Shown in pieces: positions 1,478 through 4,410 of a stretch of 32,000 nt of DNA (its first letter is position 1; every line of letters starts with the position of its first letter). Origin of the DNA: Candidatus Saccharimonadota bacterium (lineage in GTDB: Bacteria; Pseudomonadota; Gammaproteobacteria; Enterobacterales; Enterobacteriaceae); NCBI RefSeq assembly GCF_012571795.1, contig NZ_CP046222.1, positions 360,819 through 392,818 on the forward strand. Direction: 5' to 3'. Under the pieces are notes generated by a model. The model searched no databases. It worked only from the letters and a program-made list of their open reading frames with translations, and had not been told where the DNA came from. The position numbers were made by a program, and so were the translations under genes.

Positions 1478-4410
1478 GGTTAAGACTCACGGGTGTTTAT
1501 TAGTACTGGTTAGCTCAACATATTACTATGCTTACACACCCAGCCTATCAACGTCATAGTCTTTAACGTCCCTTTAGGGATATCTATAAAATAAATAAAT
1601 ATCCTGGGAAGAATAATCTTAAGGTAAGTTTCGCGCTTATATGCTTTCAGCGCTTATCTTTTCCGCATTTAGCTACCGGGCAATGCCATTGGCATGACAA
1701 CCCGAACACCAGAGATGCGTTCACTCCGGTCCTCTCGTACTAGGAGCAAATCCTTTCAATCTTCCAACGCCCACGGCAGATAGGGACCGAACTGTCTCAC
1801 GACGTTCTAAACCCAGCTCGCGTACCACTTTAAATGGCGAACAGCCATACCCTTGGGACAACTATAACGGTCCTAAGGTAGCGAAATTCCTTGTCGGGTA
1901 AGTTCCGACCTGCACGAATGGCGTAATGATGGCCAGACTGTCTCCACCTGAGACTCAGTGAAATTGAAATTGCTGTGAAGATGCAGTGTACCCGCGGCAA
2001 GACGGAAAGACCCCGTGAACCTTTACTATAGCTTGATATTGAATATTGATTATTTATGTGTAGGATAGGTGGGAGACATAGAAGTATTAACGCTAGTTAG
2101 TATGGAGTCAACCTTGAAATACCACCCTTAAATACTTAATATTCTAACCTAAACCCGTAATCCGGGTTAGAGACAATGTCTGGTGGGTAGTTTGACTGGG
2201 GCGGTCTCCTCCCAAAGAGTAACGGAGGAGCACTTAAGGTCAGCTAATCACGGTCGGAAATCGTGAGGTTAGTGCAAAGGCATAAGCTGGCTTAACTGTA
2301 AGAATGACGGTTCAAACAGATGCGAAAGCAGGTCTTAGTGATCCGGTGGTTCTATATGACAGGGCCATCGCTCAACGGATAAAAGGTACTCCGGGGATAA
2401 CAGGCTAATACCGCCCAAGAGTTCATATCGACGGCGGTGTTTGGCACCTCGATGTCGGCTCATCACATCCTGGGGCTGAAGTAGACGGCCGCCGTTTACC
2501 GGGGCTTCGATCAAAAGCTTCTCAAAAAATGATAACTTCATCAATTAACCTTCCGGCACCGGGCAGGCGTCACACCGTATACTTCCACTTACGTGTTTGC
2601 ACAGTGCTGTGTTTTTAATAAACAGTTGCAGCCAGCTGTTATCTTAGACTGAATTCAGCTCTAAAAGTAAATTTTGTCACTTACTATCAGTGTGCCTTCT
2701 CCCGAAGTTACGGCACTATTTTGCCTAGTTCCTTCACCTGAGTTCTCTCAAACGCCTTAGTATTCTCTACCTGACCACCTGTGTCGGTTTATAGTACGAT
2801 TTAATATTATTTTAAATACTTAGAGGATTTTCTTGTAAGTATGGTATCAATTACTTCAATACAATAAAGTATTTCGTCATCACGCCTCAATGTTAATAAT
2901 TATCCGGATTTGCCTAAATAATCCATCTAAACGTTTAAACCAAGACAACCATCACCTGGATAATCTAACCTTCTTCGTCCCCCCTTCATAATAATACCAA
3001 GTACAGGAATATTAACCTGTTATCCATCGATTACGCTTTTCAGCCTCACCTTAGGTGTCGACTAACCCTACCTCGATTACCGTTGGATAGGAAACCTTAG
3101 TCTTTCGGCGAATAGGTTTTTCACCTATTTTATCGTTACTCATGTCAGCATTCGCACTTCTGATATCTTCAATAAATTTTACAATTTATCTTCAACGACT
3201 TACAGAACGCTCCCCTACCCAATAAATGTAATAACACTTATTGTCGCAGCTTCGGTGTATAATTTAGCCCCGTTATATCTTCCGCGCAGGACGACTAGAC
3301 CAGTGAGCTATTACGCTTTCTTTAAATGATGGCTGCTTCTAAGCCAACATCCTGGCTGTTTATGCCTTCCCACATCGTTTCCCACTTAATTATAACTTAG
3401 GGACCTTAGCTAGCGATCTGGGTTGTTTCCCTTTCCACAACGAACGTTAGCACCCGCTGTGTGTCTCCCGTGATAACGATATTCGGTATTTGAAGTTTGC
3501 ATCGGATTGGTAAGTCTGGATGACTCCCTAACCGAAACAGAGCTCTACCCCCGAATACGAATAACACGAGGCGCTACCTAAATAGCTTTCGGGGAGAACC
3601 AGCTATCTCCCGGTTTGATTGGCCTTTCACCCCTAACCACAAGTCATCCGCTAATTTTTCAACATTAGTCAGTTCGGTCCTCCAGTAAGTATTACCTTAC
3701 CTTCAACCTGCTCATGGCTAGATCACCGGGTTTCGGGTCTATATCTTGCAACTTAACGCTCTATTAAAACTCGGTTTCCCTACGGCTCCCTTACACAGTT
3801 AACCTTGCTACAAAATATAACTCGCTGACCCATTATACAAAAGGTACGCAGTCACATTATTAAAATGCTCCTACTGCTTGTACGTATACGATTTCAGGTT
3901 CTATTTCACTCCCCTAACCGGGGTTCTTTTCACCTTTCCCTCACGGTACTAGTTCACTATCGGTCAGTCAGTAGTATTTAGCCTTAGAGGATGATCCCCC
4001 TATCTTCAAACAAGATTTCACGTGTCTCGTTTTACTCTTTAAGAATGTTAATATTATTTTTTTATATACAGGACTATCACCTTGTATCGTATGACTTTCC
4101 AGACACTTCTATTAAAATAATATTAACTAATATCTTTGGGCTGTTTCCGTTTCGCTCGCCACTACTAAGGAAATCTCTATTGATTTCTATTCCTCAGGAT
4201 ACTTAGATGTTTCAGTTCTCCTGGTTTGCTTCGTTATTCTATATATTCAAATAACGATAATGTATGATTAAATACATTAGGTTACCCCATTAGGATATCG
4301 CCAATTAATAACGTTTCGAATCAACTTATTGACGCTTTTCGCAGATTAGCACGTCCTTCATCGCCTCTGACTGCCAAGGCATCCATCGTATACGCTTATT
4401 TTACTTAACC
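1476..4410 (-). rRNA. rrl: 23S ribosomal RNA gene, interrupted by an internal 625-bp inverted block (1860-2484)
   Basis: Positions 1476-1859 and 2485-4410 are antisense to 23S on the + strand. Examples are aaggttaagactcacggg at the 3' end, gacgttctaaacccagctcgcgtaccactttaaatggcgaacagccatacccttgggac, and acggccgccgtttaccggggcttcgatc continuing to cgtatacgcttattttacttaacc at the 5' end. Apart from the flipped block, the gene is collinear with E. coli rrlB as recalled from memory. Confidence 0.95.
1860..2484 (+). other. Internal 23S rRNA segment (about E. coli nt 1912-2535: helix 69 loop, domain IV 3' part, most of the domain V central loop) lying in sense orientation on the + strand, inverted relative to the rest of the gene
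   Basis: The + strand reads aactataacggtcctaaggtagcgaaattccttgtcgggtaagttccgacctgcacgaatggcgtaatgatggcc, then gacggaaagaccccgtgaacctttactatagc, then ggataacaggctaataccgcccaagagttcatatcgacggcggtgtttggcacctcgatgtcggctcatcacatcctggggctgaagtag. This is 23S sense sequence. Reverse-complementing the block restores the canonical junctions GGCCGT|AACTATAACGG and GCTGAAGTAG|GTCCCAAGGG with no base gained or lost. Confidence 0.92.

Follow-up and report, generated by a model that had tools for sequence, protein, structure and literature searches.

A 625-nucleotide reversed block within the 23S rRNA gene of a reed-beetle symbiont genome, most likely an editing or finishing artefact

Read on the minus strand, the gene order of the window (the whole 32,000-nucleotide stretch of DNA that was analyzed) begins with nuoF-nuoN, a DedA-family gene, tRNA-Ser, sbcB, ribA, and murJ, continues with sufABCDSE, pyruvate kinase, a class-V aminotransferase, and murI, and ends with the 16S, 23S, and 5S rRNA genes, tRNA-Thr, tRNA-Tyr, tRNA-Gly, a further tRNA-Thr, and a crp homologue. 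The DedA-family gene, tRNA-Ser, ribA, and the class-V aminotransferase are the exceptions, lying on the plus strand. All protein-coding open reading frames (ORFs) in the window are intact, none of them is a recombinase gene, and the G+C content outside the rRNA genes is about 20%. The 16S and 5S rRNA genes match their models end to end. The sole anomaly in the window is a block within the 23S rRNA gene, the middle one of the three parts into which that gene is divided. The features of the rRNA operon are as follows, with nucleotides of the 23S parts given in Escherichia coli numbering and a slash marking each junction.

1294-1409, minus strand: 5S rRNA gene, intact, same operon (Rfam 5S model, 80.5 bits)
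1476-1859, minus strand: 3' part of the 23S rRNA gene, E. coli 2904-2536 (nt 2536-2904), identity 83.9 to 87.3%; holds the 3' side of helix 91, the A loop, U2585, A2602, and domain VI
1859/1860: left junction, ...cccttgggac/aactataacgg..., joining E. coli 2536 (antisense) to 1912 (sense)
1860-2484, plus strand (23S sense): inverted block of 625 nt, E. coli 1912-2535, identity 89.6 to 89.7%; holds the helix 69 loop and 3' strand, helices 70 to 71, and most of domain V, with nucleotides that include A2058-A2062, G2251-G2253, G2447-A2453, and A2503-U2506
2484/2485: right junction, ...gctgaagtag/acggccgccg..., joining E. coli 2535 (sense) to 1911 (antisense)
2485-4410, minus strand: 5' part of the 23S rRNA gene, E. 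coli 1911-1, identity 83.3 to 83.7% (Rfam LSU model and BLASTN); holds domains I to III and domain IV up to the helix 69 5' strand and the first loop base
4573-6126, minus strand: 16S rRNA gene, intact, same operon (Rfam SSU model positions 1 to 1533, 1533 bits)

The MurI protein encoded next to the operon is 100% identical to the glutamate racemase (QJC30529.1 / WP_208754506.1) of the Enterobacteriaceae endosymbiont of Neohaemonia nigricornis, which identifies this symbiont as the source of the window. The chromosome of this reed-beetle symbiont is 471,617 bp, and gene synteny is perfect in all 26 reed-beetle symbiont genomes (Reis et al. 2020, PMC7289800). The symbionts carry two copies of the rRNA operon, which were beyond the resolution of short reads; the operon was recovered as a collapsed short-read contig, which was then inserted at its two sites by copy-paste, either manually or in Geneious (PMC7289800). 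Because the authors document this copy-paste step, the anomaly can be placed in the only part of the assembly that was put together by hand. The order murJ-suf-pyk-murI is also the same in a Logan contig (L081) from a related Donacia-type symbiont; this contig stops just past murI, ahead of the rRNA operon, so that it confirms synteny and offers no 23S sequence for comparison. Given perfect synteny across 26 genomes, intact ORFs throughout the window, and conserved gene order, the prior for a natural rearrangement in this lineage is very low.

The orientation of the 23S rRNA gene was examined with the Rfam bacterial LSU model (RF02541) on both strands and with BLASTN against the E. coli 23S rRNA gene. 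A full-length match to the LSU model lies on the minus strand at 1476-4410 (model positions 1 to 2925, 1917.6 bits). Inside the same span, the whole-window scan also returned plus-strand LSU matches at 2012-2395 (378.9 bits, E = 3.4e-121) and 1844-1922, and when positions 1400-4450 were scanned alone, the plus-strand match rose to 547.7 bits (E = 4.1e-178), its well-aligned stretch running from an exact start at AACUAUAACGG to its end at GCUGAAGUAG. BLASTN of 1400-4450 against E. coli 23S rRNA resolved exactly three abutting segments without gap or overlap, which are the three parts listed above. As written, the gene does not match the LSU model colinearly on a single strand, and such a match is regained only when the block is flipped in silico. 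The 23S sequence as written is also not covered to at least 80% at any single place in 5,426 complete E. coli genomes, and coverage at the best places listed is 78 to 79%, a figure that fits 21% of the gene lying on the other strand. On the plus strand, the G-C skew changes sign, from -0.17 and -0.23 in the flanks to +0.13 in the block.

These alignments bear out an earlier sequence-only reading of this DNA, which had described 1860-2484 as flipped relative to the rest of the 23S gene. The description is exact to the base, and the strand-aware alignment that the reading had proposed places the switches in orientation at 1859/1860 and 2484/2485. Its from-memory estimate that the block spans about nt 1912 to 2535 agrees with BLASTN, every junction string that it quoted is correct, and its placement of the left break in the helix 69 loop holds; the right break lies in the region of helix 91.

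Reverse-complementing 1860-2484 in silico yields a colinear 23S rRNA gene with no base gained or lost, restoring the joins GGCCGT/AACTATAACGG and GAAGTAG/GTCCCAAGGG. The 80 nt around each restored join are identical to E. coli, as expected from the base-exact reciprocity that had been claimed from the sequence. The breakpoints are fixed, in that a shift of a single base inward or outward changes the sequence, and because they cannot be moved by even one base, microhomology is absent. The three pieces abut base to base with zero spacer at either junction, and neither junction carries a duplication, loss, insertion, or mobile-element trace. Positions 1400-4500 contain 103 inverted-repeat pairs, and of the 25 longest none has its arms at both junctions. 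When the two 60-nt breakpoint neighborhoods are compared, inverted matches reach at most 6 nt, away from the breaks, a result in line with the earlier statement that repeats, target-site duplications, and mobile-element remnants are lacking. Such repeats would be required for recombination between inverted repeats, just as for a site-specific invertase or for de Bruijn mis-joining.

The block itself is well preserved. Its identity to E. coli is above that of both flanks (89.6 to 89.7% versus 83.3 to 83.7% on the 5' side and 83.9 to 87.3% on the 3' side), and the 64 differences that separate it from E. coli all fall within E. coli 1989-2458, many of them clustering in 2089-2228 and 2286-2411, with none close to the breakpoints. 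The helix 69 loop (1912-1919), A2058-A2062, G2251-G2253, G2447, A2450-A2453, and A2503-U2506 are intact within the block, and in the 3' flank G2553, G2583-U2585, and A2602 are identical to E. coli. Three helices cross the breakpoints, H69, H73, and H91, and each shows E. coli-exact pairing once the block is flipped; we take H69 to be formed by 1906-1910/1920-1924 and H73 by 2043-2047/2621-2625. The covariance alignment within the block contains only a handful of noncanonical pairs. Neither the E. coli alignment nor the covariance alignment gives any sign of sequence decay in the block, so the claim that the flipped sequence is undecayed stands for all functional nucleotides checked and for the surroundings of both breakpoints.

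The junctions were then sought elsewhere. The left-junction string has no exact match in a collection holding one genome each for 185,579 species and none in JGI metagenome contigs; the right-junction string likewise has no exact match in JGI metagenome contigs. The left-junction string is itself composed of near-universal 23S sequence. A search of 5.8 billion protein clusters with the 69-amino-acid ORF that runs across the right junction (2335-2544, minus strand) recovered 3,839 relatives, which are "proteins" derived from rRNA. The 10 relatives that we read all carry the colinear join (...PYPWD/LLQPQ... or ...PNPWD/LLQPQ...), and the chimeric join of the window (...PVNGGR/LLQPQ...) is absent from these 10. 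Query coverage of 86 to 97% in some of the relatives reflects weak alignment extension only. These negatives say no more than that the arrangement is not known from other sequences.

We consider it very probable that the inversion is an in silico reverse-complement artefact, most likely an editing or finishing error, and not biology. The rearrangement is exactly reciprocal and free of gain, loss, microhomology, and decay, which is the signature of a reverse complement made in place. This exact reciprocity, the lack of repeats, microhomology, and decay, the lack of expression signals around the pieces, the hand-pasted operon, and the perfect synteny of the lineage together argue for an in-place reverse complement over an event in a cell. 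What the sequence and the publication show directly is how the block is placed, that the flip is exact to the base, that repeats and decay are lacking, and that the operon was copied and pasted manually; from these facts we infer that the flip took place in the computer and not in the cell. The sequence-only reading had ranked an assembly, finishing, or editing artefact first among its explanations, and the junction evidence together with the copy-pasted operon (PMC7289800) favors that ranking. Its editing and finishing components fit best, and its mis-assembly component is less probable, as there are no inverted repeats from which de Bruijn junctions could arise.

Under an artefact, a colinear and correct 23S sequence would have had one 625-base stretch reverse-complemented in place, either during the authors' manual finishing of the rRNA operon or when the sequence was handled at a later stage. 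In that case the symbiont itself would have an ordinary colinear 23S rRNA gene, transcribed from the minus strand within a murI-16S-23S-5S-tRNA operon. A manual or scripted reverse-complement step is needed for this, since a short-read de Bruijn assembler should not make junction k-mers that are unsupported by reads. The publication makes no explicit mention of a reverse-complement step, which counts against an artefact (PMC7289800). The closest parallel is with finishing errors in manually curated repeat regions: the region here is an rRNA operon, it was pasted by hand (PMC7289800), and the change is base-exact, undecayed, and free of any biological junction signature. Typical mis-assemblies, in contrast, arise at repeats, and the breakpoints here are without them.

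Two other technical routes were considered and judged unlikely. Mis-assembly by a de Bruijn assembler needs inverted repeats of at least k bases or reads that bear the junctions, and no such repeats are present. Chimeras formed in multiple displacement amplification (MDA) or library preparation yield single junctions and not a reciprocal pair.

Among biological explanations, the one that survives best is a real inversion of very recent date that put one of the two rrn copies out of action, with the colinear copy supplying all of the 23S rRNA; we regard it as unlikely. For the published sequence to look as it does, the two copies would have been collapsed with the block present in both orientations, and finishing would have happened to fix the inverted one. 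The possession of two rrn operons makes the loss of one 23S copy survivable (PMC7289800), the absence of decay fits a very recent event, and with both junction types present in the reads, overlap-based contig joining could give a base-exact inverted join. However, inverted repeats, microhomology, target duplications, and mobile elements are all missing from the breakpoints, and illegitimate inversions in nature are seldom exactly reciprocal without the loss or gain of a base. Such an inversion would also have to be set against perfect synteny across the whole reed-beetle radiation (PMC7289800). Moreover, the paper describes one collapsed operon contig and not one broken at the block (PMC7289800). 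The left junction was not found in the genomes searched, neither junction was found in the metagenomes, and the junction-ORF relatives that we read are colinear. Natural inversions between inverted rrn operons or insertion sequence (IS) copies resemble the window in that a segment of DNA is reversed. They differ in being bounded by long inverted repeats and in covering large spans between operons, whereas the reversed segment here is 625 bp, lies within a gene, and has no repeats.

A second possibility is a genuinely split 23S rRNA gene, in which the minus strand would give rise to the 5' and 3' pieces and the plus strand to the core (nt 1912 to 2535), with the three RNAs assembling in trans into a working large subunit. 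The conservation of the block is what a functional piece would be expected to show, and each breakpoint lies in or beside a hairpin loop (that of H69 and the apex of H91), a place at which a discontinuity is sterically conceivable. Rearranged and fragmented rRNA genes also exist in organelles, the mitochondria of Chlamydomonas being one case in which they are both fragmented and scrambled. In the mitochondria of Plasmodium falciparum (PMC3382252) and in the rnl of Diplonema (PMC3936708), LSU rRNA pieces are scrambled or lie on both strands and must associate in trans, and for both-strand fragmentation the available account of the Plasmodium mitochondria provides a precedent (PMC3382252). However, each organellar piece is a gene in its own right, with ends, flanks, and transcripts of its own, and such pieces are common to related species, whereas the pieces of the window 23S abut without spacer, lack expression signals, and are known from a single sequence.

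The details of the locus make a functional split highly improbable. With no spacer between the pieces, a promoter, terminator, or processing site would have nowhere to lie, and none of the pieces has the flanking expression and processing signals of its own that mark a split rRNA gene. Upstream of 1860, the plus strand offers a single promoter-like site, a weak 9-of-12 match that lies at 1563-1592 within the antisense of the 23S 3' domain. The region holds 24 promoter-like matches against 13.5 expected by chance, and we found no convincing plus-strand promoter for the block among them, the matches being at chance level. There is also no upstream plus-strand gene from which read-through could enter the block. 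The minus-strand operon transcript would carry 625 nt of exact complement to the plus-strand piece, and the long perfect duplex that the two would form is expected to be a substrate for RNase III instead of part of a ribosome. A fixed functional rearrangement would normally show a lineage history and remodeling of its junctions. The left-junction string was not found in the searched genomes, neither string was found in the searched metagenomes, and the 10 junction-ORF relatives read are colinear. No feature in the sequence supports a split gene.

Bacteria do have 23S rRNAs that work as more than one piece of RNA. Intervening sequences (IVSs) in helix 25 and helix 45, found in Salmonella, Leptospira, Campylobacter, and others, are excised by RNase III and leave the rRNA fragmented. 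In contrast to the arrangement in the window, IVS fragmentation leaves the pieces colinear, on one strand, and within one transcript, and it affects variable surface helices and not helix 69 or the peptidyl-transferase center. The 23S rRNA gene in the window has no IVS.

A programmed invertible segment, in which a site-specific recombinase would toggle one rrn copy, has in its favor the bare fact of inversion and nothing more, and its probability is close to nil and the idea effectively refuted, since the inverted repeats required at both boundaries are absent, the window has no nearby recombinase gene, and the setting is a reduced 0.47-Mb symbiont genome with perfect synteny (PMC7289800).

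The inverted block is thus most likely not a real feature of the symbiont genome. If the artefact interpretation is right, the finding is a data-quality flag only, and the 23S sequence as written is unfit for phylogeny, probe design, and rRNA annotation. The flag possibly extends to 24 sister assemblies, as the data set comprises 25 short-read reed-beetle symbiont genomes with hand-pasted operons. If a recent inactivating inversion were instead true, the assembly would have caught one rrn copy of two just after its loss, in a genome whose synteny is otherwise perfectly preserved. A real and working split arrangement would overturn the view that bacteria make their LSU rRNA from one strand. It would be the first case in bacteria of an rRNA gene divided between the two strands within helix 69 and the peptidyl-transferase center, and would amount to a natural experiment on the assembly of the peptidyl-transferase center in trans.

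The rRNA operon of the window is the rrnB orthologue, given the tRNA cluster that follows its 5S rRNA gene and the position of murI upstream of the 16S rRNA gene. The features discussed here, all on the minus strand, are as follows.

105-743, minus strand: CRP homologue with a cNMP-binding domain and a Crp HTH domain
849-1409, minus strand: tRNA cluster and 5S rRNA, in the order 5S, tRNA-Thr(TGT), Tyr(GTA), Gly(TCC), Thr(GGT)
4607-5038, minus strand: spurious 143-aa ORF, wholly within the 16S rRNA gene
13674-15507, minus strand: SufB and SufA ORFs, mechanically called

The tRNA-Thr(TGT) gene lies directly after the 5S rRNA gene and is followed by the Tyr, Gly, and Thr(GGT) genes, a set that corresponds to the thrU-tyrU-glyT-thrT cluster of E. 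coli. In E. coli, this cluster is located downstream of rrnB, a few genes away. The genes murB-birA-coaA, which separate rrnB from the tRNA cluster in the E. coli order, have been lost in the symbiont.

Based on alignment to the LSU covariance model, domain I of the 23S rRNA has no sequence for model positions ~274 to 310, and the partner strands of a neighboring helix are unpaired. The 3' domain contains a short A+T-rich stretch, tatctataaaataaataaatatcct. These features, at 2670-2760 and 1581-1605, are typical rRNA erosion of a reduced symbiont and are unrelated to the 625-nt inversion within the gene.

The 16S-23S spacer (4411-4572) is just 162 nt long and contains no tRNA gene. According to the genome paper (PMC7289800), the M. 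mutica reference has two rRNA operons, and tRNA-Glu(TTC) lies in the spacer of one of them. The spacer content of the N. nigricornis symbiont record is unreliable too.

The 143-aa ORF at 4607-5038 is spurious. Such rRNA-derived ORFs are plentiful as "hypothetical proteins" in public protein collections; one 23S antisense ORF had 3,839 relatives in a protein cluster search.

The mechanically called SufB ORF begins at a TTG, is 518 aa long and shares 113 nt with the SufA ORF; SufB in the related Logan contig is 480 aa long. Together, these lengths place the true SufB start probably further downstream than the mechanical TTG; the overlap is not due to a frameshift.

The CRP homologue is full-length, with ~60% identity to Yersinia and Vibrio CRP, and is kept in a genome of 0.47 Mb with roughly 21% G+C. 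Retention of a global regulator at such genome reduction is unusual.
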